64,000 nucleotides of DNA from Pyrinomonadaceae bacterium (GCA_031396065.1 JANNJZ010000418.1:9030-73029), one strand, 5' to 3'; shown: positions 1 to 22,832, numbered from the stretch's first letter. A program made the numbers and translations. The notes: generated by a model not told the origin, from the letters alone.

Positions 1-2863
1 ACGAACCGCCTCCTCCTATGTACACCACGCCTGCTGACGCAGTCGGTGGCGACGAAAACGCGTATGCTTCCGTAAGCTGCGTCGACCAGACCAGGGCGCC
101 TGACGCTGCATCGAAAGCGCGAAGCACTCCGTTGTAGTTCACGGCGAAGACCCGTCCAGCATCGTAGGCGGCGTTGGACCATGGATATGTTCCACTTAGA
201 TCGACTGGTCCCCACAACGTGGCGCCATTCGCCTCGTCGAGGGCATATAGTTTTGCTGCATAAGAAGGGTCGTAGTACGCGACCGTGACGAAGATCCTGC
301 CGTTGGCGATGAGCGGATAGGAGATCTGACCGCCCAGATCTCGAGACCACCGCTGCTCCAAAGGTGGAACAATCGTGTCGAATTGCGCCCCGCTATGGGT
401 GGCGTCGATTTGATAGGCCACTGCAGTCCCCGCAGTCGGCGGAGGGGTGGGCGTTGCCGTGGGGGTCGCTGTGCAGAAGCTGCTCGTCGACATTAACTGG
501 AATGTGTAACTCCCACCCAGTCCCGCCGTGCCGTTGACGGCGAAGACGACGACCGCAAAGCTGGTGTTGCCCGGGACGGTGAACTGGAACGACGTGATGA
601 GCGGTTCAGAGGTGCCACTACTGACGCCGGGGTCGCCCAGGTAACGAGATGGATTGGTGATATCAGTCGCGACAAACGGCGCCAGGAAAGCAGCGATTTG
701 GTAGTTCGCATCGGACTGAGAATTTTTGGTTAATGCCGCTGATACACAGACTGGTGAGGACGACGAGTTGGTGAAAGTATAAGCGTCGAATGGATACGAG
801 CCGGATTCGATATTCCCAGGGAAGGGATTCGTGCTGCAGGTACCCTGCCCCTCGGCTCGAAACAATCGCGTCGTCATCGTACCGGTGGTGGCAGGCGCCG
901 CCGGGCTGCCGAGGTTGGCTGTAAAACCGCAACTAGCATCGACTGGCGGTGTAGGAGTCGGCGTCGGTGACGTCAAATCGAATGTATAGACCGCGCCAGT
1001 GTTGGAGTTCTTACCCACAGCACCGACCACTACTGTGTCGCCATCGATTCCTACCGACGAACCAAATTGATCATGCGCCGCCAGATCACTCGCGGTGAGT
1101 TTCTGCACCTGTCCCCAGCCTTCAACGCCATTCTGATTGCGCTCGCAGATGTAGGCCGCACCACCAGTGGCGCGATTGATGGCCCAAGCTCCGACCACCA
1201 GCGTGTCGCCCTCGATCGCTACCGAAATACCGAATTCGTCAACTAACGCAGCATCATCCGCGGTCAGTTCCTTCACCTCGCCCCAGCTTTCAAGTCCATT
1301 CTGATTGCGCTCGAAAATATAGACCGCACCACTAGTGGCGCGGTTTCCATGAGTAGCTCCGACCGCCAGCGTGTCGCCATCGATCGCTACCGAGATACCG
1401 AATTGGTCGCCATATCCTGCCCCATCACTTGCGGTTAGTTTTTTCACCTGTCCCCAGTGCTCAGCTCCACCCTGATTGCGCTCAAAGATGTAGGCCGCGC
1501 CAGGGGCCCCGCCGAAAGCTCCGACCACGACTGTGTTACCGTTGATCGATACTGAGTAACCGAAATAGAAATAGTTTGCCACGACACCACTGGTCAGTTT
1601 CTGCACCTGTGCCCAGTTCTCAGCTCCACCCTGATTGCGCTCGAAGATGTAGGCCGCGCCAGTGACGGAGTTCTTAAGCCAGGCTCCGACCACTACTGTG
1701 TCGACATCGATCGCTACCGACCAACCGAATTGGTCATTCACTGCCGCATCAGTGGCGGTGAGTTTCTGCACCTGTCCCCAGTTCTCAGCTCCACCGTGAT
1801 TGCGCTCGAAGATATAGGCCGCGCCAGTCTTGGAGTTCTTGCCGTAAGCTCCGACCACTACTGTGTTGCCGTTGGTCGCTACCGAGTAACCGAATCGGTC
1901 ATCTGCCGCCGCTTCGCTCGCCGTTAGTTTCTTAGTCTGAGTGAAAAGTGGATCAATTCGGACCGGGTAAACTGCCTCAGTGTCATCTATCAAGAGCGAA
2001 ATCTGTTTCCTGTCAGCCTGGAAGCGGGTTTGTAATTGTCGGCCCAACGCATCGGTAGCCACCAGATGATCATAGCGCAGCCAATGCTGGCCATTGCCGC
2101 CGATCAGTTCTAACGCCTTTCCCGAATCCACCAGCGCCGGTCTGACATCACCCGTAACCGTCAGGCGCACTCGCAGTGGCGCTCCCTCATGCCTTTTCCC
2201 GGGCGGCGCCGTCAGGGTAAAGCCCTGCTCGAGGCCATCTTGACGGTTTTGATACCACTCGACGATCTCATCCGAATCGGCATGGTCAGTGTTATTGGAT
2301 CGTGTAGCGAGCCGTCGGTGAATCTCGATGCGATTGCCATCGACGCGCATCGTTCCCGCTCCGGCAGTCAACATTCGGCGACCATAACCGTAACTCCGCA
2401 GCCTTAACCGCGCCTGTAACGTCGTCGTCTGCTGATTGGTGAGTGACTGCAGAACTACGTCGCGTCCATTGAAACGGACCCTCAGGCTCTGAGCCGGATT
2501 TGTTGCTTCGTAGATGTCCGCCGCATTGTGCTTTAGTCGTCCTGATCGCAACGCACTCGATTTTTGGGCTGGCGGCTGCTGGTCGATCTGGTACTGTGCC
2601 GCCTCGATCTGATTCTGCAGTCGACCATAAAGGCCGTGCTCTTTCAGATAATCACTGGCTGGCTTGCCTTCCAGGCTGGGCAGCGGTTGGGTGGATTGCG
2701 CCTGTGGGGCTTTGACTGAACTATCCGAGGCCAGGCGTTTGGTCAGCTCTGGAACTTTGGTGGCTGGGCGGTTTGCCTGTGAGCCGTGCCGACTAATGAT
2801 TAATGGCAGCGCAAGGGCGACTAGAGCGAAGAGCGCCAGGGAAACGATTGTGCGAGAGCGCAT
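1..2863 (-). CDS. Secreted FG-GAP-repeat protein with a C-terminal PQQ/BamB-like beta-propeller region (3' end runs off the window)
   Basis: Absent from the ORF track because there is no stop inside the window. My own translation from the ATG at 2863 (GGAG about 8 nt upstream on the minus strand) gives MRSRTIVSLALFALVALALPLII, a signal-peptide-like start. It is followed by at least 6 repeats of the type DxFGxSVAIDGDTxVVGA...GAAYIFERNQGGAENWGQVQKLTA (FG-GAP-like), a PTPTPTPP linker, and then LYALDEANGATLWGP...VLRAFDAASGALVWS (PQQ-like). The frame stays open to position 2. Confidence 0.75.
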   Translation of the reverse strand, partial: MRSRTIVSLALFALVALALPLIISRHGSQANRPATKVPELTKRLASDSSVKAPQAQSTQPLPSLEGKPASDYLKEHGLYGRLQNQIEAAQYQIDQQPPAQKSSALRSGRLKHNAADIYEATNPAQSLRVRFNGRDVVLQSLTNQQTTTLQARLRLRSYGYGRRMLTAGAGTMRVDGNRIEIHRRLATRSNNTDHADSDEIVEWYQNRQDGLEQGFTLTAPPGKRHEGAPLRVRLTVTGDVRPALVDSGKALELIGGNGQHWLRYDHLVATDALGRQLQTRFQADRKQISLLIDDTEAVYPVRIDPLFTQTKKLTASEAAADDRFGYSVATNGNTVVVGAYGKNSKTGAAYIFERNHGGAENWGQVQKLTATDAAVNDQFGWSVAIDVDTVVVGAWLKNSVTGAAYIFERNQGGAENWAQVQKLTSGVVANYFYFGYSVSINGNTVVVGAFGGAPGAAYIFERNQGGAEHWGQVKKLTASDGAGYGDQFGISVAIDGDTLAVGATHGNRATSGAVYIFERNQNGLESWGEVKELTADDAALVDEFGISVAIEGDTLVVGAWAINRATGGAAYICERNQNGVEGWGQVQKLTASDLAAHDQFGSSVGIDGDTVVVGAVGKNSNTGAVYTFDLTSPTPTPTPPVDASCGFTANLGSPAAPATTGTMTTRLFRAEGQGTCSTNPFPGNIESGSYPFDAYTFTNSSSSPVCVSAALTKNSQSDANYQIAAFLAPFVATDITNPSRYLGDPGVSSGTSEPLITSFQFTVPGNTSFAVVVFAVNGTAGLGGSYTFQLMSTSSFCTATPTATPTPPPTAGTAVAYQIDATHSGAQFDTIVPPLEQRWSRDLGGQISYPLIANGRIFVTVAYYDPSYAAKLYALDEANGATLWGPVDLSGTYPWSNAAYDAGRVFAVNYNGVLRAFDAASGALVWSTQLTEAYAFSSPPTASAGVVYIGGGGS

Positions 2864-3075: not shown

Positions 3076-4110
3076 TTGGAGGAATTTTTCGCGGCCGATA
3101 CTCGCAGATCGAGACTCTATGACCCGCAAATTGTAGCACGGCTCAGTCGGTTCGAGCCTGCTCGGGCAATAGGTGCGCGATCCTTTGGGAGCTCGGAATA
3201 CGTTGATGAGTTCGGTGATAAAACGATGACTCAGATTTCGCCTCGCATGGTTGAGAATTATCTGGTGGAATTGCTGCAAACCAAAACGCGGATTGACCGA
3301 CCCTATTCGCCGGTAACCGTGCGTCGGCATTACAACATGCTTAATCAACTCTTCAACATGGCAATTCGCGAGCGCATCACTAACGATAATCCGTGTCGTT
3401 CGGTGAGTCGCACCGTGCTGAAGAATTTACCCACATGGCAAAACCGTGATCGATGGCTGAACAAATACTCACCGGACGAAGAAGGACGGCTTTTTGTCGC
3501 GTTTGGAGAGCACGGCCAGCATGTAGCGGCCATTTGCCGCATCGTTTTGAACACTGGCATCAGGCCACCCAAGGAGGTATTGGCAATAAGGAAGGATCAC
3601 GTCAATCTTTCGGACGACCAGCGCTACTGCAAGGTCGAAAGAACGGACGTGTTGATTCCGCCTCGGGCGATCCTCGTGGCCAAGGGGAAGAATGGTCGGC
3701 CGCGAGCTTTGCCGCTCAATCGCACAGTACAAAGGGTCGTTGCGGTTCTCGCCACGGATTCGACGACGGAGGGTTGGTTATTTATTTGCGAACCGTGACG
3801 ATGAACCAATCAAAGCAATAAAGACCGGATTCACCAAGGCTTGTACTCTAGAGCCGGAATCGAAGACCTGCGGCCTTACGACCTCCGTCACACATTCGCC
3901 ACCCGGCTCTTGGAGCGAGGCGTGCACTCCTTCATCATTTCGGCACTGTTGGGGCATTCGACTCCGACGGCTGGATTTGGTGTCGGATCGCGAATTACTT
4001 CGGGCTACGCGCACGCTACCTGGGGTGCAATGCCGTGTCGAGGCCGTCCCGGGTCACCTCGTATTGCGCGTAATCGTTTTAAGACCGTAAACATTGACGA
4101 AGGCGGTTAG
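3076..4110 (+). pseudogene. Tyrosine recombinase (phage-type integrase), disrupted by two frameshifts and N-terminally short
   Basis: Frame 1 (3076-3798) reads ...VRRHYNMLNQLFNMAIRERITNDNPC...ICRIVLNTGIRPPKEVLAIRKDHVN... and ends GWLFICEP*. Frame 2 continues FANRDDEPIKAIKTGFTKAC. Frame 1 resumes near 3845 with SRAGIEDLRPYDLRHTFATRLLERGVHSFIISALLGHS...GYAH (the catalytic HxxR, H and Y region). The only start available is a TTG. Confidence 0.75.
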
Positions 4111-4187
4111 AGAAGTCACATTCACATGCATGAGTTGGATAAAGCACCCGCGCAGTCTGCCAAAAGTCTGCCAAAACTTTCGCCGCA
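4031..4187. repeat. Direct repeat copy 1 (integrase 3' end plus downstream); pairs with 15361-15506
   Basis: tgccgtgtcgaggccgtccc(-)gggtcacctcg ... gagaagtcac ... ataaagc...gtctgccaaaactttc(g)ccgca aligns with 15361-15506 in the same orientation, with substitutions and small indels. The first 14 nt are the reverse complement of a tRNA-Val anticodon stem-loop. Confidence 0.8.
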
Positions 4188-4426: not shown

Positions 4427-4879
4427 TCAGCTCGCGGTGACGCCTTCTGACAATCGGGCGTATTCAGCGTAGAGATCCTTGAGGTTGTTGTTCAACTCTG
4501 TAAAGATTTCAGGTCTGATGTTTTCAGGTGGAGTTTGATTCAGAACTTTCAGCAAAGCGGAAATTACTCGCGAAACCTCACCGGACATGCCAACTGACTT
4601 CGGGCCATTGTCGCGAATCAAACTCGCCAGCGGATCCAAAACCGCCAGGCGTCTGATGGCCTGACTATCAGGTTGTTCTAGTAGTGCTGCTGCGATTAGA
4701 TCTTCGCTCCACCCTTGGCTCGTCGCTGCGTTGACAATGTAGTTCATGAGGTCGGTATCAGGGACACAATCAAGAATTCTCTTGTCGAGGCGCGTCTTCA
4801 GCATCCTTTCAAGGCTTAGCTTATCAAACGCCTGCAGCATTGCTTCGGTAAGTTTGTTGGAATCGCTTGCGGCAGTCAT
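4427..4879 (-). CDS. Adaptor-domain (EAD-like) protein, 150 aa; last gene of the NTPase/protease operon
   Basis: The N-terminal ~80 aa (LKTRLDKRILD...IVNAATSQGWSEDLIAAALLEQPDS) is paralogous to the N-termini of the 353-aa and 371-aa ORFs. Its start overlaps the upstream stop (ATGA at 4876-4879). Confidence 0.8.
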   Translation of the reverse strand: MTAASDSNKLTEAMLQAFDKLSLERMLKTRLDKRILDCVPDTDLMNYIVNAATSQGWSEDLIAAALLEQPDSQAIRRLAVLDPLASLIRDNGPKSVGMSGEVSRVISALLKVLNQTPPENIRPEIFTELNNNLKDLYAEYARLSEGVTAS

Positions 4880-10275: not shown

Positions 10276-11211
10276 TTAAGATTCGTTCTTACTGTGAGGC
10301 CGATGAAGGCGCTCGACCGGCAACTTGTCCGCGTCGATCAAGTCAGTTGAGTCAGTCGTGGCCGGTCGGGTTTTTAGTTCACTCAGATTTCGCGGAGCCG
10401 GTATGTCAGCCATCGATTCGTCGTATAGGTCAAACCACGGCAGTCCGAATTCGGCATACGTTGCTGCGCTAACCGGAGTAGTCGGTGGCTCAAGATCACA
10501 GATAGCGCGATACTGTTCACTGTTGAGCAGGTAAACAGAAACGGTCTCATGATTTTGCTGGTCCCAGACAACGATACCGTAAGGGTCGCTGTATATCTTT
10601 TGCTTAATTCGACCTCCGGCGTCTAAGCCCATTTCAACCCAGGTATCAGACCCGTACTGAATTTCCGCTGGGGAAGCTGGTGGAGGTTCGTCCGGAAACT
10701 TCCCGCGTTTGGGCTCATAGACCACAAGCTGGAGGCCACCCGTTTCCTCCCTCCCGGTAATTTGACCTTCAACAGTTTTTAGCTCCCCGAGTGGCGTCGC
10801 AATGAATTGTCTAACGAAGTTCGCTCCGGCATTGATTCCGTCGAGCCATGGTTGATCTGGGCACACCAAATAGTCTTGCGGATCAGAGTTCAACCCTTCT
10901 TCCCAAACCGTTCCGGAAACAGCATTCACGCCGCCGACCGCTACTTTCACCGCATTGGGCTTCCAATCCTCTCCTCCAAAGCCGAGCCATATTGCCTCTC
11001 GTTGGTAAACGGGAAGAAAGAACGCTGCGTTGTGACGCCATTTCGCGGGAACTCTCTCAGCAAAATCGTCCACGCGGTGAACGTTGAAAGGCCCAAGCGA
11101 CGGCGGCAGCGGATAGTGCTGTCCGTCTTCGGGAATTCGCAGAGTTCGCTGAAGCGAAACCGAAAACCGGTCTCCAACGTAAATGCGCGTTCCATCGGTT
11201 CGGACCAACAT
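10276..11211 (-). CDS. Conserved protein of unknown function (311 aa)
   Basis: Long ORF in the operon. I moved the start from the TTG at 11229 to the ATG at 11211, which has GGAG 7 nt upstream. The sequence (SLQRTLRIPEDGQHYPLPPSLGPF...VKVAVGGVNAVSG...PWLDGI...RQFIATPLG) contains no motif I can assign. Confidence 0.7.
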   Translation of the reverse strand: MLVRTDGTRIYVGDRFSVSLQRTLRIPEDGQHYPLPPSLGPFNVHRVDDFAERVPAKWRHNAAFFLPVYQREAIWLGFGGEDWKPNAVKVAVGGVNAVSGTVWEEGLNSDPQDYLVCPDQPWLDGINAGANFVRQFIATPLGELKTVEGQITGREETGGLQLVVYEPKRGKFPDEPPPASPAEIQYGSDTWVEMGLDAGGRIKQKIYSDPYGIVVWDQQNHETVSVYLLNSEQYRAICDLEPPTTPVSAATYAEFGLPWFDLYDESMADIPAPRNLSELKTRPATTDSTDLIDADKLPVERLHRPHSKNES

Positions 11212-11624
11212 TGTTACTCCAGAAAGCAAGCGCCTAGAAACGCTAAATCAAGCCGCAGAGATTCGGGTCGAGTGAAGAGCACCTGGAGCCCTCGTACTAT
11301 CTGTTATGTATGACCTTATATCCGGAAGCGTTTCACGGCTGGAAGTTCCATGAAGAAGCGCTACCGCGCTTGTCAACGGAAACAGCGGTCCTTGGCAGTT
11401 TTCCAGCAAGTGCGAGGCGCAGGCTCGTGAAGAATCCTTAGAGAGACGGTGCGGACGATAAGTCGAATGACAACCAAAAGTCAACAGCTTCTCGTTACAA
11501 GGTGCAGAGCCTTGCGAGAGTTGGGGATTCAAATGACCCCGGCCTATTCGGCGCAGGCACGAGGTTCAATTTTTACCGTCGATCAGGGCGAGGAGTCAGG
11601 TGAGTTGTCAAACTCAAAAGCTAA

Positions 11625-14396
11625 TCAACTCTCACCAAGTAATTCTGCGACTGAGACGCGCCGAAAGCCGACCGGCGTTTCCTCGCCTGGCGAGGCCAAT
11701 CGCATCCCGCCCACCAACTCGTCCACTTCTTGAGTCGCGAGGGTGTTCCAGTCAAACAGAAATATTTTTTCAAAGTAGGCAGCAACTTCAGGATCCCGAA
11801 CCAACAAACTTGCATCGCGATTGAACAAACTACCCTGGTTAGTAAGATTGTGACTTCCAAGCAGCACTTCCTTTCCATCCACGATGATGCCCTTGGTGTG
11901 ACACCTCATTTGAACTCGAATGGCATCGGTGTCGAATCCGAAGTCTTTTAGCCGCTCAAGCAGCTTTTGCTGCGAAGGCCCATTGCTGGCGCCAAACTCT
12001 CTTGCATCCCGGAAGATAACCCGCACATCAACTCCAGACTGTTGCTTATCGCGGAGCAGGCCGAAGAACTCGACGAACTCATCGTTGTTGTTCTCTTCGT
12101 CAAGCAAGTTGAACGATTGGTTCTCAACGTAGATTTTCCGCGTACCTTTCCTCATTATCTTAAGCGCGTGGTCAATGAAAAGACGGCGACCATGCGAGTC
12201 ACGATCAGGCGTCAGCAACGGTTGAATCTCAAACTCTCGATCGCGAATCAAGGGATCGAAGTACTGTGCATGAGCTGCCTTCTCAAGCCCTTCCATGAAA
12301 GCGGCTTCCGGGACAAAGACATCAGGAAACACTGCTTCCAGGCCCTCTTCAAGAGGTACGCGCTCAGCTTCGCGAAAATCAAATTCAATGAACTTCTGGA
12401 ACATCGTGGCCAGCTTTCGGTTCGCAATGACCGCATGCCATTCGCGATTATGTTTTTTGAGGGGTCCGATCTGCGTTGAGTGGGTGCCAGCCGGATCGAT
12501 GTTCGCCTGGTTGGAATCTTTCCAATTTCCGCTGGACATCCACAACTCTTCACCGTCTCGCGAGGCGACCTTGATATGGTATGCAGATGGAATCAGTTTC
12601 CCTTTCCCAACCGAGGCCCAGGCGTGTTTGAACTTAGTTCCGATGCGGTGCTTCATGTCGTCAACGGCTTCCTGGGTTCCCTTTTTCTGGGTCACCATCC
12701 GCAGTGTCTTGTTGTTCCCCTGCATCGCTTGCGCGATAGCATCACTGATGTGATTCGGATCCCACTCGTACATCGTTGCAGTCAAATGCTCGTTAACGCG
12801 ACTAAGGAAGTCTCTTAGATTCGGAAACCCCGAGTCGGGACTAACGTGAAAGACTACTCTCATTTGCTCTTTAACGGGCTCGAGGAACACGTTGGTTGGT
12901 TCCCGATATTTGCCGGGACGCGCCGGCGCCTCAAGCACCGAGAGATCGACGCCCAGGGATTCGAGTTGGTCACGTAATGCCGACGTGCGCACATCAACTC
13001 CGACTCCCAGAATCTGAGGCGGAATCGCCGATTTACCTTCCGCAGAAAGCTCAGCAGTAGTTAACTTCTTTCGAGTCTCGATTACGACCACTCGCTCATC
13101 AGTGATCCAGCCTCGCTTAAATCGGTAACCAAGCCGGATCTCGATCACATTAGGATCGTTACCATAAGCTTCACGAGCTGCCTGAAGCGCCCTTTCGTGG
13201 GCATCTCCGCTCGTAACGGTTCCGCTTGGGCCCACCGTCGTAGTCGGCAAGGAAATGGGAGTTGCGGCGCCAACTTTCACCGTCACCTCAATCGGAATAT
13301 TCAATTGAAAAGTGTAGGAACTTGCTGTCGCGGGTAGCAGTGTTGGCGGCGAGGTCGGCAAGCTCGTACCAGGTTGATTTCCGGGGCCTACACTTACTTC
13401 GCCCTGTTGCACGCGTCGCAGTAGTTCGCGCACTTTTGGTGCTGGGACCGCAAAGTTAGCTTGCATAAACAGCCCGGAGAAGTGAAGGCCTACAGCTTTT
13501 CCCGATCCCAGATCGATAGCTGGAGAACCGGAATTGCCTCCTAGCGTCGAGCAATCATGCTGCAATTCGTCTTCGGAAACAGAGATGATCTGGCCTGGAG
13601 CGAGGCGTTTCTTGTCGTAAACATCGCCAAAGATTCTCAGCACCAGATCTTGATCGGGGACACGCGAGTCGCGAGCGGGGTAACCGATAGTGGCAACAAG
13701 CTCGTCACCACTGACGGCGTCAGCCAATTCAATTGGAAGCGGCAACGGCCTTCCGGTGACAGGTTTGCTCAATCGCAGAAAGGCTACGTCGGGCTCACTC
13801 GATGATGCGATAAAAAGTATGGAGTTGACCGCGTATTCAAGACTGTCCGCGCGTTGATCCTCCTCCAGAAAATCGACACGCGACGTCATCGCGCCATTCA
13901 CTCCCGCACGAAACGTAAATCCGTTCACGCCGCGCCGCCCGAACTCCTGCGCGACATGGCGGTTTGTGACGATGATGTCGTCAGCGACGAGCCAACCGGT
14001 TCCAAGCCAGGGGAAGTCCGGATGATTGGTTACTTCGACGCGGCCAATTGCTGGAATGACTCGATCCAAAATGGGCTTTGCCGTTTGAATTCGCGCTCTC
14101 CAGACTTCACTATCCGGGCCGAGAAACTCAGTGGTGGCCTGGTTGTCCCGAATGGTTAAGACTGGTCGTGCCAGAGGACGAACTATAGTTTCTAAAGTGA
14201 ACCGTTCTGTCAGTTCCGCTACACCTGGTTCACTCACAGAGGGCAATGCCGCAGCGACGCTAATCTCTTCGGCCAACGCGTCGACCGACTCCTGAGCGGG
14301 CAATTTTACCTTTTTCTGCAGCTCCTCATAGAGTGCGAGGTCCTGTTGTGCAAATTGCCGCATTACCTCATCAAGTTGTTGTTGATTGACTGGCAT
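11625..14396 (-). CDS. Trypsin-like serine protease fused to a two-HKD phospholipase-D-superfamily domain (923 aa)
   Basis: The protease shows IIVTNRHVAQEF (His), PDVAFLRL (Asp) and STLGGNSGSPAID (Ser, DNA ~13519-13550). HKD-1 is YHIKVASRD...SSGNW (DNA 12555-12578) and HKD-2 is CHTKGIIVDGKEVLLGSHNLT (DNA 11877-11900). Confidence 0.85.
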   Translation of the reverse strand: MPVNQQQLDEVMRQFAQQDLALYEELQKKVKLPAQESVDALAEEISVAAALPSVSEPGVAELTERFTLETIVRPLARPVLTIRDNQATTEFLGPDSEVWRARIQTAKPILDRVIPAIGRVEVTNHPDFPWLGTGWLVADDIIVTNRHVAQEFGRRGVNGFTFRAGVNGAMTSRVDFLEEDQRADSLEYAVNSILFIASSSEPDVAFLRLSKPVTGRPLPLPIELADAVSGDELVATIGYPARDSRVPDQDLVLRIFGDVYDKKRLAPGQIISVSEDELQHDCSTLGGNSGSPAIDLGSGKAVGLHFSGLFMQANFAVPAPKVRELLRRVQQGEVSVGPGNQPGTSLPTSPPTLLPATASSYTFQLNIPIEVTVKVGAATPISLPTTTVGPSGTVTSGDAHERALQAAREAYGNDPNVIEIRLGYRFKRGWITDERVVVIETRKKLTTAELSAEGKSAIPPQILGVGVDVRTSALRDQLESLGVDLSVLEAPARPGKYREPTNVFLEPVKEQMRVVFHVSPDSGFPNLRDFLSRVNEHLTATMYEWDPNHISDAIAQAMQGNNKTLRMVTQKKGTQEAVDDMKHRIGTKFKHAWASVGKGKLIPSAYHIKVASRDGEELWMSSGNWKDSNQANIDPAGTHSTQIGPLKKHNREWHAVIANRKLATMFQKFIEFDFREAERVPLEEGLEAVFPDVFVPEAAFMEGLEKAAHAQYFDPLIRDREFEIQPLLTPDRDSHGRRLFIDHALKIMRKGTRKIYVENQSFNLLDEENNNDEFVEFFGLLRDKQQSGVDVRVIFRDAREFGASNGPSQQKLLERLKDFGFDTDAIRVQMRCHTKGIIVDGKEVLLGSHNLTNQGSLFNRDASLLVRDPEVAAYFEKIFLFDWNTLATQEVDELVGGMRLASPGEETPVGFRRVSVAELLGES

Positions 14397-15087
14397 AATT
14401 TATCTCCTGAGTTGAGAGGGATTCAGCAAGGAATCTGATCCCGACGTAATCACTGGTCGGATTGCTTCAAGACGCTTTTCTTACTAACTGGCCGACGAAA
14501 ACGGCCGGGGTTCTCGGATCCACGAGTTTTCTCCTCGCTTGAACGGTCGCCGGCGCTTCTAGAACGAATCTTTGTCGCTGGGCTTCTGGAACGAGCCTTT
14601 AATGAACAGGTCTTTAATGTCTTATGACGAACCGCGGGTTTTCGTTTCAGTGTCTGGCTGCAAGGCAAGGACTATGCTGCCTCCACGCCAAGGTCCGGGC
14701 GGCAGATATCATCGATTGTTAAGTAATTCGAAGGAATTACAAACAAGCCTGCGAGTTTGGTAGGTAGCGACGGCAGTATTATTACGACCGTCGACTTGGA
14801 TCGAGGGACCCTTTTGAGATCTTCCGACTACGTGGCCAACAAATTCCGAGTTTGTTCTGCCACGAGAACCAACCATGAGATGGTCAGCGCGATCGCAAGG
14901 CACTCCCCCTCTCGGTAAGGTCTAACCGCTGCTTCTGAACGTAGGTACGAGAAGCCTCGCTTTCGTTGCTCCGGAATATCGTTAGCCAAGGCGAAAAGAG
15001 TGTGAGAAATGAGGGCGGAAAACGGGCAGTGGCTAAGTGGAGCGTTCTGGAGCAATGGAAAAGCGAGGTTATACAGCGTAACTTGTT

Positions 15088-15326: not shown

Positions 15327-15374
15327 TGGTAGGCGCGTGGGGACTTGAACCCCAGACCTCTGCCGTGTCGAGGC
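15327..15374 (-). pseudogene. tRNA-Val 3' fragment (anticodon loop to CCA)
   Basis: The reverse complement is GCCTCGACACGGCAGAGGTCTGGGGTTCAAGTCCCCACGCGCCTACCA. This covers the anticodon loop TCGACAC (GAC), the T arm TGGGG/TTCAAGT/CCCCA, the acceptor 3' strand and CCA. The sequence upstream of it cannot form a D arm or an acceptor 5' strand. Confidence 0.75.
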
Positions 15375-15506
15375 CGTCCCTGGGTCACCTCGGACAGCGC
15401 GCAATCTTTGCTCACGCGTTGAATATTAACCAAAGAGGCTTGAGAAGTCACTCAACACTGCACGGATTGAATAAAGCGTAAGCGTAGTCTGCCAAAACTT
15501 TCCGCA
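15361..15506. repeat. Direct repeat copy 2 (pairs with 4031-4187)
   Basis: See 4031-4187. Here the repeat abuts the tRNA-Val 3' fragment instead of an integrase body. Confidence 0.8.
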
Positions 15507-15530: not shown

Positions 15531-15854
15531 CTACGCAGGCATGCCGTGTTCGACCGTTTCAGCTCGTCGCACTTTGATCTTCACTTCGACTCGTGACCCG
15601 AGCCGGTTGATGATCGACATCAGGCGATCGACGGTGAACCGCCCAAGATCGGCGTTGCGGATGCGCGAGAAGTCCGCTGCCGCAATCCCAGTGCGGCCCT
15701 GCGCGCCGCGAACGCTAAGCCCGTCACGGTCGAGCGCTTTGATGATCTCGGCGGCCAGAATTGCCTTGAACTGATCGGCATCGGCATTCTTGTGTCCCAG
15801 GTCGCGAAAAACATTTCCGCTTCCCTTCACTACGTCCAGCTTTTCGCTTTTCAT
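15531..15854 (-). CDS. XRE-family HTH antitoxin (HigA-like)
   Basis: GSGNVFRDLG...QFKAILAAEIIKALDRDGLSVRGAQGRTGIAAADFSRIRNADLGRFTVDRLMSIINRLG fits the antitoxin that pairs with Gp49/HigB-type toxins. It overlaps the upstream toxin gene by 4 bp. Confidence 0.8.
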   Translation of the reverse strand: MKSEKLDVVKGSGNVFRDLGHKNADADQFKAILAAEIIKALDRDGLSVRGAQGRTGIAAADFSRIRNADLGRFTVDRLMSIINRLGSRVEVKIKVRRAETVEHGMPA

Positions 15855-16198
15855 CGCAACATCTCCTTCAGCCTTTTCATACGGTCCTTGACCAGATCGC
15901 TTTCAGCTTTGGGTGTCTTGATGCCCCGCGTAGATTTCTTCTGAAAGACATGGACAACCCAAATGTCTTCACCGAGCTGCACCGCATAGACCACGCGGAA
16001 CGCGTCACCGCGAAACGGTAAAGCAATCTCGAACACGCCCGAGCCTAAACCCCGCATCGGCTTCGCAATGTCGGCCTTACCGCCCTCTGCGGCAATCGTC
16101 AAGGCGGTAAGACAAGTTGACCGCACCCCATCTGGGAAAGTCTCGAATTCCCTGAGTGCCGCTTTGATCCACGAAACGGGCCGCGTGCGTCTGATCAT
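15851..16198 (-). CDS. Gp49/HigB-like (RelE/ParE superfamily) toxin
   Basis: WIKAALREFETFPDGVR...KPMRGLGSGVFEIALPFRGDAFRVVYAVQLGEDIWVVHVFQKKSTRGIKTPKAE is the typical DUF891/Gp49 pattern. The toxin-first gene order also fits. Confidence 0.8.
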   Translation of the reverse strand: MIRRTRPVSWIKAALREFETFPDGVRSTCLTALTIAAEGGKADIAKPMRGLGSGVFEIALPFRGDAFRVVYAVQLGEDIWVVHVFQKKSTRGIKTPKAESDLVKDRMKRLKEMLR

Positions 16199-16370: not shown

Positions 16371-16976
16371 CTAAACAATGCTTGCCGCGGCCTCGTTGAC
16401 AGTCGAAAGATAGAGTCTTCGACGAGCACGGTCCAGGCGTTGATAAAGTGAACTGCGGTTAACTCGCAGTTGGCGGGCAGTTTCGGAATGGCTGCCCGTC
16501 TTTCCCCGCAACATGTCATAAAGATCCTGCATGGCATGGTCAAGAAAATCATCCAGGGAATCACCCTCGGTGTAGGCGCCGAATGGCCAGCGACCATTTG
16601 TGGAGCACAAGACAACGTGAGGATGGTTGTCGAGGGCGCGGCGAACCGCGTCTGCGTTAATGAGTGAGTCTCCCAAGGTGCCGACCACCAGTTTCTCTAC
16701 CACATGGCGAAGCTGACGAACATTGCCGGGCCAGTGGCAATCAAAGAGAGCATCAATGGCGTCATCTTCGATTCTCCGCGACACGGTCGATTTGATCTTC
16801 TGCTCTGTCTGATGTTGAAAATATTGCAGGAGCAATGGAATGTCTGAAATTCGATCTCGCAGAGGCGGTGTGTTGATGGCCAGCACCGCAATGCGATAAA
16901 AGAGATCTTCCCGGAATCGACTGAGCCGGATACCGAACCGGATTGCTGCAACGACTACCCGGTTACTTGGTCCCAC
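16371..16976 (-). pseudogene. 5'-truncated sigma54-dependent activator (C-terminal part of the AAA+ domain plus the Fis-type HTH only)
   Basis: FREDLFYRIAVLAINTPPLRDRISDIPLLLQYF, WPGNVRQLRHVVEKL and a C-terminal HTH (SHSETARQLRVNRSSLYQRL). The Walker A/B and GAFTGA regions are missing. Confidence 0.7.
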
Positions 16977-18343: not shown

Positions 18344-19738
18344 GTGCGTAACGTTCTAATAATCAACGGAAACGGACTAGGTTCAGTTGCGTGCAACTGT
18401 GGCTCATTGGCTACATTGCTGCGCGGCGCCGAAGTTTTCGATGGCGTTCAGGAAACATCTGTCGAAAAACTCTGCTCAGTTGGTAATCTCGTGCCTGATC
18501 TCATACTGCATCGCTTCTTGCTGAGGGACTGGGCCGACCGCGGAAGGGAGATCTGCAAGACGACCTGGGCTTCGGCCAAGACGTTTGTTGTTTTGTGTGA
18601 CCAGGCTGTCCAGCGCAAGAAAGGTATCTCGTCAGCTCTAATTGATGTTGATGATTTTCTCTTCTGTCCGTATCAGGAGAATGAGCTGTTGCTTCGCCTC
18701 ACACGTCTTATCAAGGACTTACCTCAATCTGCTTCCGGCTCGGTCAATAAGGCCGCAAACCGTGCGCCAGACCGGGATCTGTTGATTGGTGATAGTCAGA
18801 GTTTTCTGCAAGCTCTTCGTAAGGTCAGTTTGATGGCACAGTCCAAAGCGCCCGTTGTCATTACGGGAGAGACAGGAAGCGGAAAGGAATTGTTGGCGCG
18901 GGCGATTCATTACCGGAGTGTCCGAAGTTCCAAGCCATTCATACCGGTTAATTGCGGCGCGCTGCCCGATGAATTATTCGAGAACGAACTCTTTGGCCAT
19001 CATAAAGGCGCCTATACCAACGCCTGGTCGGATGAAAAAGGACTAATCGCCGAGGCAGAACAAGGAACTCTCTTTCTCGACGAAGTGGACGCTTTATCTC
19101 CTGCGGCTCAAATCAAACTTCTGCGCTTTCTTCAAAGTGGCGAATACCGGCCACTCGGTTCCGCGCGAACTGTAGTCGCGGACGTTCGCATTATTGCCGC
19201 CACCAATGCGGACTTTAACTGGCTCGTCGAACAAAAGCTTTTTCGCGAAGACTTACATTATCGGCTCAACGTGCTGACTTTGTCTCTACCTGCCCTCCGT
19301 GACCGAGGCACTGATGTGGTTCAACTCGCCTCACACTTCTTATCGGTTTATGCCAGGGAATATAAACGCTTAACGCCGCGTCTGTCCGACACCTCCGCGC
19401 GAAAACTCTTGAATTATTCCTGGCCAGGAAATGTCCGCGAGCTAGAAGGAGTTATTCAGCGCGCGATCGTCTTACAACAATCGGAGGTGCTAGCGCCGGA
19501 AGATATTGAACTGCCCAAGTGCAAAGAAGAAGATGCCGGTGAGTCCGAGTTGTTTCGCCAGCAGAAATCTTTGGTCATTCGCCAATTCGAGCGGAAGTAC
19601 ATTGAGCGCTTACTCGCGATTCATGGCGGCAACATCTCAAAAGCGGCAAAAGCAGCCGGCAAGGATCGGCGTTCGTTTCAACGACTGGTCAGCAAGTACA
19701 CCTCGGATCGCAAGTGTCACCCAAGCGATTCGGAGTGA
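18344..19738 (+). CDS. Sigma54-dependent transcriptional activator (bEBP) with a degenerate receiver domain
   Basis: VVITGETGSGKELLARAIH (Walker A), GTLFLDEVD (Walker B), ELFGHHKGAYTNA (GAFTGA variant), FREDLHYRLNV, WPGNVRELE and a C-terminal Fis-type HTH. The start is a GTG. Confidence 0.85.
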   Translation: MRNVLIINGNGLGSVACNCGSLATLLRGAEVFDGVQETSVEKLCSVGNLVPDLILHRFLLRDWADRGREICKTTWASAKTFVVLCDQAVQRKKGISSALIDVDDFLFCPYQENELLLRLTRLIKDLPQSASGSVNKAANRAPDRDLLIGDSQSFLQALRKVSLMAQSKAPVVITGETGSGKELLARAIHYRSVRSSKPFIPVNCGALPDELFENELFGHHKGAYTNAWSDEKGLIAEAEQGTLFLDEVDALSPAAQIKLLRFLQSGEYRPLGSARTVVADVRIIAATNADFNWLVEQKLFREDLHYRLNVLTLSLPALRDRGTDVVQLASHFLSVYAREYKRLTPRLSDTSARKLLNYSWPGNVRELEGVIQRAIVLQQSEVLAPEDIELPKCKEEDAGESELFRQQKSLVIRQFERKYIERLLAIHGGNISKAAKAAGKDRRSFQRLVSKYTSDRKCHPSDSE

Positions 19739-20345: not shown

Positions 20346-22832
20346 ATGCCAGTGACGCCGCCGGTAAGTTATCCGGGTGTTTATGTTCAGGAGGTTCCCA
20401 GTGGGGTCCGCACCATCGTCGGTGTCAGCACTTCGATCGCCGTGTTCATCGGCACTTCGAGGAAGGGGCCGATCTACAAGCCGGTACATTGTTTGAATTA
20501 CAGCGCCTTCGTCGATCTCTTTGGAGATGATGCCAACGCCGGACAACTGTCACAGTATGTGCGGCTGTTTTTCCTGAACGGCGGAACTGACTGTTGGGTC
20601 ATGCGCATCGCTGCCGGCGCATCCGCTGCAACTGTAACGCTGCACGATGAGTCGGACGCGGGCACTCTGAGGCTGGACGCCAAGGATCTTGGCTTGGCGG
20701 GAGAGAATATTCGCGCGCTGATTACCTATTCAGGGTTGCAGCCGGAATCAACGTTCAATCTCGAGCTGTTTCGTTGGGAGGTGAATTCAACCGGCCAGCG
20801 CAGCCGTAAGGAAGGAGAGATATGGCGTGGTCTCTCCATGGATCCGACGTCACCCAATTACGCTCCTGGCTTCATTACGCAAAACTCGAAACTCGTCGAT
20901 GCCACTGATCTTAATGCTGTGCCGGCCGCTGCTGGTACTATTTTCGGGTTTTCTCTGTCGGGCCGCCCCGTGGAGGTTGGCGGAACCTTTCAAGCGCAAT
21001 GGCAGCCGATACTTGGTTCCACGGCAACCACCAACCGTTTCAAGATCAGCATCGGAGGTAGTCCCTATGTTGACGTGGATCTGTCAACCATCGTCGTGGG
21101 AAACAACGTAAATGCTTTGCTTGATTCTATTGGCGCCGCCATTCAGAACGCATTCGGGGCGATTGGTATTAGCAACATCATTCATTCGCCGACCGCCGGC
21201 GGCCCCGGGAATTTTGAAGTCCGTTTTCTTTCGACTGCCACGCAGACGCCCGGCAATGTCCGGCGGTTACGCATCGCGCGGGTTACTGACAACGGCGATG
21301 TCTTCATCCGTACGGGCACTACCGTAGGCGCCCAAAGGGACCTCGCAGTGCCTCTGATGCTCGGAACCGAGCAAGGCGGACTCGAGGTTTCCGGCTATGC
21401 GGAGCGCCGCCCGGCACCAACTGGAATTACACTCAATGTCCTCGATCCAGTGGTCGTCACAAGCTTAGCTGGCCTCGATCAAACAGAAGTAACCTCCGTG
21501 GCTCTGGAATCCGTCCAGAGCAGTGGCATTCCTGCGCTGCGCACGATCTCCCTGCAACCTCCGGGTTCGCCGAATGTCGTAACCGTGTCATCCCCGGCGC
21601 CACCGCCGCCACACTTGGTAAGCGAAGACGCTTCTACTGTTTCTGCCAACGGCGGTTCGGATGGTGTGCGGGAAAAGTTGGCTCTAATTGCAGAGGCGGT
21701 GAACAGGTTCACTCCGCCGGCCGGCGATACCTGGCGTTGGAAGGCCGAAGTCTGGGGTTACCGCCTCGCCTTGTTGCCGACAGAGGCGGCCGAAGACAAC
21801 TTCCTTTCGGCCGGTTTTGCCTTCACTACGACTCCTGCGCTGGCGGCCGGATCGTTCACCAACAACGTTCACTATTACAGCCTCGGCATGAGTGGCAGCT
21901 CGGTGGGATTTCAGACCAGCGCTGCCGGCCTTGCCTCTGATGGCACCCCGCCAGATCTGGCCGCCTATCGTTCGGCGTTCCCAATTCTCGACAAGGAAGT
22001 GGACCTGTTCAACCTCATGTCTCTCCCTCCGGACGCGGCGATCCCCATCGAGAGGGTTTACGGCGAGGCCAGCGTTTTCTGCCAGCAGCGCAGAGCGTTT
22101 CTGCTTATGGATCCGCCAACCGAGCCCGGCAGAACGTGGGATGACGCGCAAAAGGCGGCCACCGGGGTTGCCGCCTTACGAATTGGACTGGTCAAAGACT
22201 ACAGCGCTGTGTTCTATCCGCGCATTACCGTTGACGAGGCCGGGCTCAAGAAGAACATCGGACCTTCCGCCGCAATCGCCGGTCTTTGTGCTCGCACCGA
22301 TAGCACCCGCGGTGTCTGGAAAGCGCCGGCGGGGACTGAAGCGGATCTCCGTGGCATCGTGGGACTCGAGCAGCGGTTCTCAGACAGCGAAAACGGAATC
22401 TTGAATCCGCGCGCCGTAAATGTCTTGCGCACATTTCCCAGTGGCATTGTGAACTGGGGGGCGCGCACCAATTTCGGTGACGACAACACGCCGCACGATT
22501 ACAAGTACATTCCGATCCGGCGGTTGGCATTGTATATGGAAGAGAGCCTGTACCGGGGACTGAAGTGGGTCGTCTTTGAGCCAAACGACGAACCACTATG
22601 GGCCCAGATCCGTCTGAACGTCGGCGCCTTCATGCACAATCTTTTTCGTCAGGGAGCTTTTCAGGGACGCATGCCCAAAGAAGCTTACTTTGTAAAGTGC
22701 GATGCCGAAACCACGACGCAAAACGACCGCAACCTTGGCATTGTGAACATCTGGGTGGGGTTTGCCCCACTGAAGCCGGCCGAATTCGTGATCCTTTACC
22801 TGCAACAGATGGCCGGACAGATCGAAACCTAA
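20346..22832 (+). CDS. Contractile tail sheath protein (Cis2/Afp2-4-like), unusually long at 828 aa
   Basis: The N-terminus PGVYVQEVPSG...IAVFIGTSRKGP and the C-terminus NIWVGFAPLKPAEFVILYLQQ are hallmark sheath motifs. A strong RBS (GAAGGAGGA) precedes the gene. Confidence 0.9.
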   Translation: MPVTPPVSYPGVYVQEVPSGVRTIVGVSTSIAVFIGTSRKGPIYKPVHCLNYSAFVDLFGDDANAGQLSQYVRLFFLNGGTDCWVMRIAAGASAATVTLHDESDAGTLRLDAKDLGLAGENIRALITYSGLQPESTFNLELFRWEVNSTGQRSRKEGEIWRGLSMDPTSPNYAPGFITQNSKLVDATDLNAVPAAAGTIFGFSLSGRPVEVGGTFQAQWQPILGSTATTNRFKISIGGSPYVDVDLSTIVVGNNVNALLDSIGAAIQNAFGAIGISNIIHSPTAGGPGNFEVRFLSTATQTPGNVRRLRIARVTDNGDVFIRTGTTVGAQRDLAVPLMLGTEQGGLEVSGYAERRPAPTGITLNVLDPVVVTSLAGLDQTEVTSVALESVQSSGIPALRTISLQPPGSPNVVTVSSPAPPPPHLVSEDASTVSANGGSDGVREKLALIAEAVNRFTPPAGDTWRWKAEVWGYRLALLPTEAAEDNFLSAGFAFTTTPALAAGSFTNNVHYYSLGMSGSSVGFQTSAAGLASDGTPPDLAAYRSAFPILDKEVDLFNLMSLPPDAAIPIERVYGEASVFCQQRRAFLLMDPPTEPGRTWDDAQKAATGVAALRIGLVKDYSAVFYPRITVDEAGLKKNIGPSAAIAGLCARTDSTRGVWKAPAGTEADLRGIVGLEQRFSDSENGILNPRAVNVLRTFPSGIVNWGARTNFGDDNTPHDYKYIPIRRLALYMEESLYRGLKWVVFEPNDEPLWAQIRLNVGAFMHNLFRQGAFQGRMPKEAYFVKCDAETTTQNDRNLGIVNIWVGFAPLKPAEFVILYLQQMAGQIET

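Follow-up and report, generated by a model that had tools for sequence, protein, structure and literature searches.

Executioners controlled by proteases increasingly look like a widespread theme in bacterial immunity, with the gasdermin systems, the trypsin- or caspase-activated pro-nucleases, and LypABC as examples. In the LypABC system of Caulobacter crescentus (Banks et al. 2026, PMC13236601), LypC is built from a trypsin domain (residues 1 to 335), a linker, and an endonuclease domain (residues 354 to 662); the S296A change abolishes lysis, and the nuclease residues are dispensable for the phenotype. System 3 of Kaur, Burroughs, Iyer, and Aravind (2020, PMC7159879) combines multiple trypsin-like peptidases with a NucA endonuclease, sometimes together with the domain EAD1 and a STAND nucleoside triphosphatase (NTPase). 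Defense of the gasdermin type and of the phospholipase/endonuclease type cannot do without the CARD-like domains carried by its trypsin proteases (Wein et al. 2023, PMC10312443). Trypsin-like proteases activated by oligomerization switch on the gated metallo-β-lactamase (MBL) pro-nucleases of Hachiman, AVAST, and Lamassu, and further classes of proteolytically activated enzymes were predicted in the same study (Tuck et al. 2025, PMC12799240). Here, we describe P0001, a 923-amino-acid protein encoded in a 64,000-nucleotide stretch of Pyrinomonadaceae DNA (GCA_031396065.1 JANNJZ010000418.1:9030-73029, called the window below), which joins a trypsin-like serine protease to a phospholipase D (PLD)-superfamily domain with two HKD motifs. 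We put at about 0.6 the probability that P0001 is a LypC-type protease-effector fusion, acting as the executioner of a protease-cascade conflict system with CARD/EAD adaptors and an NLR-like (STAND) component. Judged from its sequence, the NucA endonuclease that is usual in such proteins is replaced in P0001 by a NAL1_N-like domain and a two-HKD PLD domain.

An earlier note on this DNA had given the exact coordinates of the open reading frame (ORF), and only the strand needed correcting: P0001 is encoded on the minus strand, and the plus strand of the same interval is riddled with stop codons. The ATG follows a Shine-Dalgarno motif and is preceded at once by a TAA in the same frame, and the start is secure because homologs align from residue 1. 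The fusion of a complete serine protease triad with two intact HKD motifs in one chain, as proposed in that note, was confirmed, since every motif quoted was found: TNRHV (H147), DVAFLRL (D203), and GGNSGSP (S289) in the protease, HIKVASRD...SSGNW (H607, K609, D614, and N624) as HKD1, and HTKGIIVD...GSHNLT (H833, K835, D840, and N850) as HKD2. Pfam recognized Trypsin_2 at residues 132 to 304 (1.7e-16) and PLDc_2 in two stretches (3.2e-21). The His-Asp-Ser order and the GxSGxP serine motif are those of S1 chymotrypsin-fold peptidases of the V8/HtrA-like type, and the PDB matches of the protease domain were V8/glutamyl endopeptidases and HtrA. Similarly, as in the single-chain two-HKD PLD superfamily, each of the two HxK(x)4D motifs of P0001 has a G-x-x-N element after it, and the AlphaFold2 model shows the bilobed PLD fold. 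Among 60 full-length family members from genomic loci, with identities down to about 30%, H147, D203, S289, and the H, K, and N of both HKD motifs were invariant in 60/60, as was D840, and D614 was present in 57/60. In a separate alignment of 51 homologs, all 11 of these residues, including both Asp residues of the HKD motifs, were invariant. Both enzyme halves thus look active and jointly under selection.

The N-terminal part of P0001, up to the linker strand, was shared with proteins carrying a different enzyme. Six loci found with the peptide patterns of the family encoded proteins of 578 to 709 amino acids (the shortest cut by a contig end) with a C-terminal Endonuclease_NS domain, and the first 375 to 410 or so residues of these NucA-fused proteins were 41 to 50% identical to P0001. 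Residues 3 to 407 of P0001 aligned with one trypsin-Endonuclease_NS protein at 42% identity (E = 3e-92), and this alignment starts with the N-terminal helix and runs through the E-T-I-V...R-P-V-L segment to the linker strand. In a tree built from protease domains, the NucA-fused proteins formed one group (SH-aLRT 92) with PLD clade A, which is P0001's own, and PLD clade B, whose members are about 30 to 33% identical to P0001. When residues 1 to 335 of P0001 were searched exhaustively with HMMER, 3,250 cluster representatives were returned, of which 727 reached E <= 1e-30. We picked 64 multi-domain representatives from these matches, a length-biased set deliberately enriched for odd lengths, and found Endonuclease_NS fused in 26, PLDc_2 in 8, AAA/STAND ATPase domains in several, and Lipase_3, TIR_2, a caspase, a subtilase, a calcineurin-like phosphoesterase, and an M48 peptidase in one each. 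A constant protease carrier with swappable, death-type effectors reads as the signature of a conflict system.

The AlphaFold2 model, built on 51 sequences (mean predicted local distance difference test [pLDDT] 73, predicted template-modeling score 0.68), together with Pfam and conservation, divided P0001 into seven segments (Table 1). The N-terminal helical segment is common to the NucA-fused sister proteins. It is followed by a predicted-disordered segment that ends with an invariant E69 and then I71, and the surroundings of E69 may be a propeptide junction. Beyond the protease, the earlier note had seen a linker of about 230 residues of unknown fold. Of this, about 60 residues are indeed predicted to be disordered, and the remainder is a folded domain of about 90 residues and the start of the PLD fold. 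The disordered linker contains a conserved strand motif (TYTFQLNIPIEVTVKVG, residues 361 to 377), and the exchange of PLD for NucA between relatives falls in the variable stretch after it, at about residues 378 to 395. The folded domain (residues 396 to 486) was modeled in isolation with pLDDT above 90, and rice NAL1, a protease, supplied its best Foldseek matches, with many chains aligned over about 75 to 90 columns at 17 to 22% identity (probability up to 0.99, E about 0.02 to 0.1). Two relatives of the domain gave weak matches to Pfam NAL1_N, and a PHROG annotated as "protease" matched residues 403 to 471, PHROG matches being weak overall. In NAL1, an N-terminal strand and an ATP-binding domain build the trimer or hexamer, and protease activity is lost when they are missing (PMC12012508). 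By analogy, the middle domain of P0001 may serve in oligomerization, a role held as an inference only because the similarity to NAL1 is modest. The closest relative of P0001 (L004) has, at a distance of 6 kb from its trypsin-PLD gene, a gene for a bacterial NAL1-like protease of 343 amino acids. This protease matches Trypsin_2 weakly, and its N-terminal domain is NAL1_N-like and was matched by the P0001 middle domain.

In Flavobacterium and its relatives, we found proteins of about 531 amino acids that consist of the NAL1_N-like middle domain and the PLD domain only, starting at about P0001 residue 402. No protease gene was detected near three such loci (L039, L040, and L043), and their products appear to be natural "pre-cut" versions of the fusion. 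The conserved C-terminal tail of P0001 is also present in these protease-less proteins and therefore belongs to the PLD module.

The trypsin-PLD fusion is not a one-off and belongs to a large, already annotated family. A word-indexed protein search found at least 662 homologs of P0001, and nearly all of the 120 listed were full length with both Pfam domains. The listed homologs came from Pyrinomonadaceae, Thermoanaerobaculia, Larkinella, Erythrobacter, Novosphingobium, and Phycisphaerae, among others, and bore no annotation beyond "phospholipase D-like domain-containing protein" or "V8-like endopeptidase." Scanning 185,579 species, each represented by one genome, for the family patterns confirmed at least 170 stretches, NucA-fused sisters included, in Acidobacteriota, Bacteroidota, Alpha- and Betaproteobacteria, Myxococcota, Planctomycetota, Chloroflexota, Gemmatimonadota, Nitrospirota, and Melainabacteria. 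In the protease-domain tree these phyla were intermixed, at odds with taxonomy; nearest to P0001 were metagenome-assembled genomes (MAGs) of Pyrinomonadaceae, followed by Larkinella and Dyadobacter. Because the distribution is patchy and the tree is discordant with taxonomy, we regard trypsin-PLD as a horizontally moving accessory gene. The stretch itself derives from a freshwater-sediment metagenome; it was present in only four DNA runs, all of that metagenome, and in no RNA runs.

Several genes around P0001 are of the kinds found in the described systems. P0001 heads a same-strand cluster whose six further genes are tightly packed (spacers of -4 to 153 bp) and encode a 311-amino-acid protein of no known family, a metallopeptidase, an EAD1-trypsin, an EAD1-ATPase, a STAND NTPase, and an EAD1-only protein. 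The window thus holds both an EAD1-tagged protease and a STAND NTPase on the strand of P0001, a combination that most of clade A lacks. In L035, an Acidobacteriaceae locus of clade A, the trypsin-PLD gene overlaps the start of a full-length homolog of the window EAD1-trypsin, which directly follows it, and an EAD1-nSTAND1 gene with ankyrin repeats comes next. Homologs of the window STAND NTPase adjoin family members in seven loci (L044, L057, L058, L060, L069, L071, and L080), and the protein is homologous to the NTPases of 958 to 1,145 amino acids beside other family members. L044 and L058 share the layout trypsin-PLD, trypsin, trypsin, STAND (Pfam), and in L057 an EAD5-trypsin, a NACHT-like NTPase, and an ATPase are divergent from trypsin-PLD. 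Additionally, Bradyrhizobium sp. LMTR 3 (L050) carries a four-gene same-strand operon of a homolog of the 311-amino-acid protein, a metallopeptidase, a caspase (Peptidase_C14), and a 1,799-amino-acid trypsin-trypsin-PLD protein with two trypsin domains, and this operon ties the 311-amino-acid orphan and the metallopeptidase of the window to the trypsin-PLD family. Since homologs of the STAND NTPase, the metallopeptidase, the 311-amino-acid protein, and the EAD1-trypsin recur beside family members, the adjacency of P0001 to the EAD1/STAND cluster is probably functional. Compared by sequence with 8SRZ and 8SS1, two solved CARD-like domains, the window EAD1 gave no match.

Three further kinds of genes were found next to trypsin-PLD genes. 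A domain of about 400 amino acids, without a known family, has a gene of its own directly before trypsin-PLD in a Chitinophagaceae MAG (L023) and is fused to the N terminus of trypsin-PLD in a Vicinamibacterales MAG (L063) and a Burkholderiales MAG (L065) (E = 3e-41), with a metallopeptidase upstream in all three; this is a gene-fusion link of trypsin-PLD to an unfamilied partner. The gene directly preceding trypsin-PLD in one Flavobacterium and one Mesorhizobium (L020 and L031) encodes a Dyp-type peroxidase, and the mutual similarity of the two peroxidases (E = 1.8e-202) suggests a two-gene block that moved between phyla, with no functional link evident. The nearest relatives of the window among Pyrinomonadaceae encode, 26 to 74 bp upstream on the same strand, a protein of 756 to 774 amino acids without a Pfam match (L004, L010, and L018); it is absent from the window.

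The substrate of the PLD half was considered from structure, sequence, and position. The earlier note had proposed a Foldseek comparison for separating nuclease folds from lipid-enzyme folds; this comparison confirmed the two-HKD fold and returned both classes without separating them, with matches to Serratia PLD (7e0m), vaccinia F13, human PLD1-4, and Streptomyces PLD (E = 1e-13 to 1e-15). Because lipid enzymes and single-stranded DNA exonucleases (PLD3/4) are both among these neighbors, they do not settle the substrate. In a profile comparison with PDB sequences, 7e0m (1.1e-05) ranked ahead of MitoPLD/Zucchini (0.005) and Nuc (0.036); 7e0m is the biochemically studied PLD of Serratia plymuthica, SpPLD (PMC8004604). 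The named family matches of the second HKD lobe were all defense PLDs, namely, DrmC (8.3e-13 in PADLOC and 1.3e-08 in NCBIfam), DpdK (2.8e-06), and MkoC, with scores well below the equivalog cutoffs (34.7 bits versus 133 for DrmC and 27 bits versus 100 for DpdK). No cardiolipin or phosphatidylserine synthase model of NCBIfam or PADLOC matched P0001 at E <= 0.01, and a grouping of the PLD half with these housekeeping enzymes, named in the earlier note as evidence against its proposal, was not supported. The PLD domain is acidic (median pI 5.9), and neither fold nor charge served to call it a nuclease or a lipase. The strongest hint toward nucleic acid is the presence of NucA at the same position in the sister proteins; the case for a nuclease draws mainly on this swap and on the weak similarity to DrmC and DpdK, and we consider the odds of a nucleic acid or a lipid substrate to be roughly even.

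We propose that P0001 would be made as an inactive cytoplasmic pro-form. A trigger, phage or another invader, would cause the neighboring STAND NTPase to oligomerize and to recruit the EAD1-trypsin (and the EAD1-ATPase) through EAD1-EAD1 contacts. A proteolytic relay that includes P0001's own protease would then cut P0001 after E69 and/or in the linker at residues 335 to 395, aided by oligomerization through the NAL1_N-like domain, and the freed PLD would hydrolyze phosphodiester bonds of nucleic acid or of membrane phospholipid so that the cell is stopped or killed. Activation or release of the PLD by the protease fits LypC, the NucA-trypsin systems of Kaur et al., and the pro-nucleases of Tuck et al. 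Since most close relatives stand alone, the module must also be able to work autonomously or with unlinked partners.

A number of observations weigh against this proposal. Of 37 clade-A loci, 32 had no partner gene at all, many of them lying amid ordinary metabolic genes, and the closest relative, 89% identical, had no partner genes and unrelated flanks. At least one partner gene was present in 5/37 clade-A loci and 20/37 clade-B loci (25/74 overall), and the window is one of only two of the 37 clade-A loci with EAD1/STAND sensor linkage. None of the cluster genes was present beside the homolog in eight contexts from an exact protein look-up. The earlier note had held that a core-genome setting without the neighboring genes would speak against its proposal of a protease-released toxin; the distribution proved patchy and not core-genome, and the neighboring genes were missing in most close relatives. 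The adjacency seen here could therefore be mere defense-island clustering, given that most clade-A loci are solo. P0001 is also set off from the cluster by a spacer of about 400 bp, and Pfam recognized no EAD or CARD domain in it. Additionally, the dispensability of the LypC nuclease residues means that a fused enzyme need not be the killing activity, and the acidic PLD domain, whose closest solved relative is a lipid-acting PLD, weighs against a nucleic acid substrate. All-against-all ORF clustering of 87 loci found no neighbor shared by all of them and no conserved partner gene for P0001's clade; the genes upstream of its members on the same strand were mutually unrelated and encoded a 774-amino-acid unfamilied protein (Pyrinomonadaceae), a PFL-like enzyme, a Dyp peroxidase, and an AraC/DJ-1 regulator.

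The solo loci with their unrelated flanks, the spacer, and the missing EAD domain are what would be expected if P0001 were a self-contained one-protein system and the EAD1/STAND genes were a separate system in a shared defense islet, an explanation to which we give appreciable but clearly lower weight. Such a protein would sense through its N-terminal region or its NAL1_N-like domain, oligomerize, cut itself, and free its PLD. The region of NAL1 that resembles the middle domain drives the oligomerization needed for NAL1 protease activity, and the protease-less proteins described above show that the modules are separable. However, homologs of the 311-amino-acid protein, the metallopeptidase, the EAD1-trypsin, the ATPase, and the STAND NTPase adjoin family members in other phyla, and the clade-A gene in L035 overlaps the start of an EAD1-trypsin gene. 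A more specific and somewhat less probable version is that the solo trypsin-PLD proteins are complete one-polypeptide immune devices without an NTPase sensor, in which the NAL1_N-like domain and the strand at residues 361 to 377 would drive trigger-dependent (possibly nucleotide-dependent) oligomerization that switches on the protease, the protease would cut at Glu69 and in the linker, and the NAL1_N-PLD fragment, like the product encoded separately in Flavobacterium, would destroy DNA or membrane; the window would then capture such a device while it is becoming coupled to an EAD1/STAND sensor.

That P0001 is a toxin exported to or injected into other cells seems very improbable; it might then be cargo of a secretion system or of a putative contractile injection system encoded at a distance of about 6 kb, and its PLD would act as a phospholipase on target membranes. 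The closest solved sequence relative is a real phospholipase D (7e0m), and a disordered N-terminal stretch such as that of P0001 has been described for cargo of extracellular contractile injection systems (eCIS) in the PROCIS preprint. However, P0001 looks cytoplasmic: the absence of a signal peptide and the intracellular location given in the earlier note were supported by a polar, acidic N terminus and by the lack of any hydrophobic segment (no 19-residue window with mean hydropathy above 1.09), simple measures applied with no dedicated predictor run. P0001 has no DUF4157 or other cargo marker (Pfam), and it lies on the opposite strand from the putative, unconfirmed eCIS block (about 20.3 to 47 kb), with a toxin-antitoxin pair and gene fragments between them. 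No injection- or secretion-system family recurred beside family members in the 87 loci, and the TIR, NucA, and caspase domains borne by this protease module in other proteins are characteristic of suicide effectors that act inside the cell. A role in housekeeping or repair, either in membrane phospholipid turnover or in DNA-protein cross-link repair (the protease trimming the protein and the PLD removing the residual phosphodiester adduct, steps done separately in eukaryotes by the trypsin-like FAM111A and the PLD-superfamily TDP1), would suit the many loci amid metabolic genes and the strict joint conservation of both activities' residues but seems very improbable in view of the scatter of the gene (about 170 matching stretches in 185,579 species genomes) over unrelated phyla with a tree at odds with taxonomy, the lack of any match to a cardiolipin or phosphatidylserine synthase model, motifs that are HKD and not the HKN of TDP1, and an effector position exchangeable with NucA, TIR, lipase, and caspase.

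The setting of the cluster points to mobility. A 48-nt copy, 94% identical, of the 3' half of the tRNA-Val(GAC) gene lies upstream of P0001 in inverted orientation, and a 138-nt direct repeat (75%) brackets about 11.3 kb that hold P0001 and the EAD1/STAND cluster, with a phage-integrase fragment beside one repeat copy. The tRNA-Val copy and the repeats look like decayed attachment sites, and P0001 and the cluster together appear to form one islet of about 11 kb that looks mobile. About 1.1 kb upstream of P0001 is without a convincing ORF. On the other side, the earlier note had given the gap to the next same-strand gene as 395 bp, which holds to the TTG of the longest ORF; to the likelier ATG at 11211 the gap is 413 bp. 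The suggestion that this gap could hold an RNA or an internal promoter gained no support, no signal of either rising above chance: Rfam matched no family there even at E <= 1 (and, at the gathering score, nothing in the whole window except tRNA-Val), its folding energy equaled that of shuffles (z = 0.21), it had one weak sigma-70-like site with promoter-like and terminator-like counts at chance, and blastx against all neighbor proteins turned up no remnant of a gene.

An ordinary toxin-antitoxin pair lies where the islet ends, and in it a Gp49/HigB-like toxin gene (PF05973, 2.9e-17) overlaps an HTH_37 antitoxin-like gene (3.1e-19). Further along, a 201-amino-acid fragment matches sigma-54-dependent activators in their C-terminal third only, and a full-length sigma-54 activator (NorR/NifA/AtoC-like, about 1e-86) shortly precedes a long plus-strand block that starts at 20346. 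Just outside the islet, a large FG-GAP repeat/beta-propeller protein (FG-GAP_2, 1.7e-91) runs off the window start.

Table 1. Positions of P0001, its segments, and the genes and elements discussed (window coordinates unless a locus is named)
Feature	Position (nt)	Strand	Remark
P0001, whole ORF: trypsin-like protease, NAL1_N-like domain, two-HKD PLD	11625..14396	-	
P0001 stop codon	11625-11627	-	
P0001 ATG	14394-14396	-	
In-frame TAA upstream of ATG	14400-14402	-	
AGGAG Shine-Dalgarno, 7 nt 5' of ATG	14404..14408	-	read from sequence
N-terminal helical segment, residues 1-31 (helices 5-31)	14304..14396	-	D19, L22, E25, K29 conserved
Variable predicted-disordered segment, residues 33-76	14169..14300	-	low model confidence
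E69 codon	14190-14192	-	
S1 (V8/HtrA-like) serine protease domain, residues 77-332	13401..14168	-	Pfam, model, conservation
Triad codons H147; D203; S289	13956-13958; 13788-13790; 13530-13532	-	
Predicted-disordered linker, residues 333-395	13212..13400	-	low model confidence
Conserved strand motif in linker	13266-13316	-	P368 in 58/60
Middle alpha/beta domain, residues 396-486	12939..13211	-	NAL1_N-like
Two-lobed PLD-superfamily domain, residues 505-890	11727..12884	-	mostly pLDDT 75-95
HKD1 codons, H607-D614	12555-12578	-	
HKD2 codons, H833-D840	11877-11900	-	
Conserved C-terminal tail, residues 891-923	11628..11726	-	P908, G910, R913
Spacer between P0001 and next same-strand gene	11212..11624	-	no RNA family, excess structure, or gene remnant
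311-aa protein, no known family	10276..11211	-	homolog in Bradyrhizobium L050, E = 9e-69
Astacin/matrixin-like metallopeptidase, 225 aa	9573..10250	-	homologs upstream of family members in L023, L050, L063, L065
EAD1 adaptor + trypsin-like protease, 371 aa	8455..9570	-	Pfam EAD1 3e-12
EAD1 (weak match) + P-loop ATPase-like, 353 aa	7240..8301	-	homolog beside family member in L057
STAND/NLR-like NTPase, 784 aa	4876..7230	-	AAA_22, AAA_16, NB-ARC, NACHT, all below gathering scores
EAD1-only protein, 150 aa, last gene of same-strand cluster	4427..4879	-	
FG-GAP repeat/beta-propeller protein	2-2863	-	
Phage-integrase fragment	3076-3798	+	
Direct repeat, two copies	4031-4166; 15361-15497		
tRNA-Val 3'-half copy	15327-15374	-	
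tRNA-Val(GAC) gene	50057-50132		
Toxin-antitoxin pair	15531-16198	-	
HTH_37 antitoxin-like gene	15531-15854	-	
Gp49/HigB-like toxin gene	15851-16198	-	
Sigma-54 activator fragment	16371-16976	-	
Full-length sigma-54 activator	18344-19738	+	
Mid+PLD-only proteins	L039 7971-9566; L040 7968-9563; L043 3149-4736		
NAL1-like protease, 343 aa	L004 2958-3989	-	
Four-gene operon, Bradyrhizobium sp. LMTR 3	L050 2297-10748		
Gene for ~400-aa domain, separate	L023 6423-7976		
Genes for ~400-aa domain fused to trypsin-PLD	L063 6366-10685; L065 6327-10715		
Dyp-type peroxidase genes	L020 6572-7855; L031 6700-7995		
Genes for 756- to 774-aa proteins	L004 7622-9946; L010 5657-7927; L018 5690-7975		

The trypsin-PLD family would add to the protease-controlled executioners a large branch (at least 662 proteins in many phyla) with a different chemistry and an extra NAL1-like domain. 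Its solo, split (middle domain plus PLD), and sensor-wired forms offer a natural series for the study of protease switching, of whether the protease or the PLD is the effector, and of effector swapping on a constant carrier, and the EAD1/STAND linkage in the window makes a convenient construct for reconstitution.

Other PLD proteins resemble P0001 in single parts. DrmC of DISARM, DpdK, and MkoC have one short PLD domain and no protease, unlike P0001. The two-HKD PLDs, 7e0m among them, share its bilobed fold (Foldseek E = 3.5e-15, target template-modeling score 0.6 to 0.7) at 12 to 15% identity and have no protease. The likeness to rice NAL1 concerns the middle domain, which in P0001 follows the protease and precedes the PLD. 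In the systems of Tuck et al., the nuclease has the MBL fold and is a separate protein, whereas in P0001 a PLD is fused to the protease. The layout of L035 matches the CARD-NLR-like operons of Wein et al., with trypsin-PLD as the effector; unlike those operons, the cluster in the window is split into more genes and includes a metallopeptidase. Compared by described architecture, P0001 and LypC both have an N-terminal trypsin-like peptidase (catalytic S289 in P0001, S296 in LypC), a flexible linker, and a C-terminal enzyme that cleaves phosphodiesters. The partners of LypC are a CARD-trypsin(-ATPase) protein and a repeat-bearing, NLR-like ATPase, and the window holds an EAD1-trypsin, an EAD1-ATPase, and a STAND NTPase. 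The two differ in that LypC carries a NucA endonuclease and has 662 amino acids, whereas P0001 carries the NAL1_N-like domain and the two-HKD PLD and has 923; most close relatives of P0001 also lack LypA/LypB-like neighbors, and no Caulobacter entry was among the 120 trypsin-NucA homologs listed. With System 3, the locus shares a fusion of the trypsin-nuclease type, extra trypsin paralogs, EAD1 on one paralog, an optional STAND NTPase, and a proposed proteolytic cascade. The effector of System 3 is NucA, and in the P0001 family a PLD takes the place of that domain; PLD/HKD has 0 occurrences in the text of Kaur et al. (PMC7159879), and PLD is also unmentioned in the 2021 sequel. P0001 has the homologous helix, trypsin domain, and linker strand of the LypC/NucA-trypsin proteins and not their C-terminal Endonuclease_NS. 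Overall, because it lacks the NucA domain and has the carrier module and the partners in common with them, P0001 is best described as a variant of the NucA-trypsin proteins and not as a strict member.

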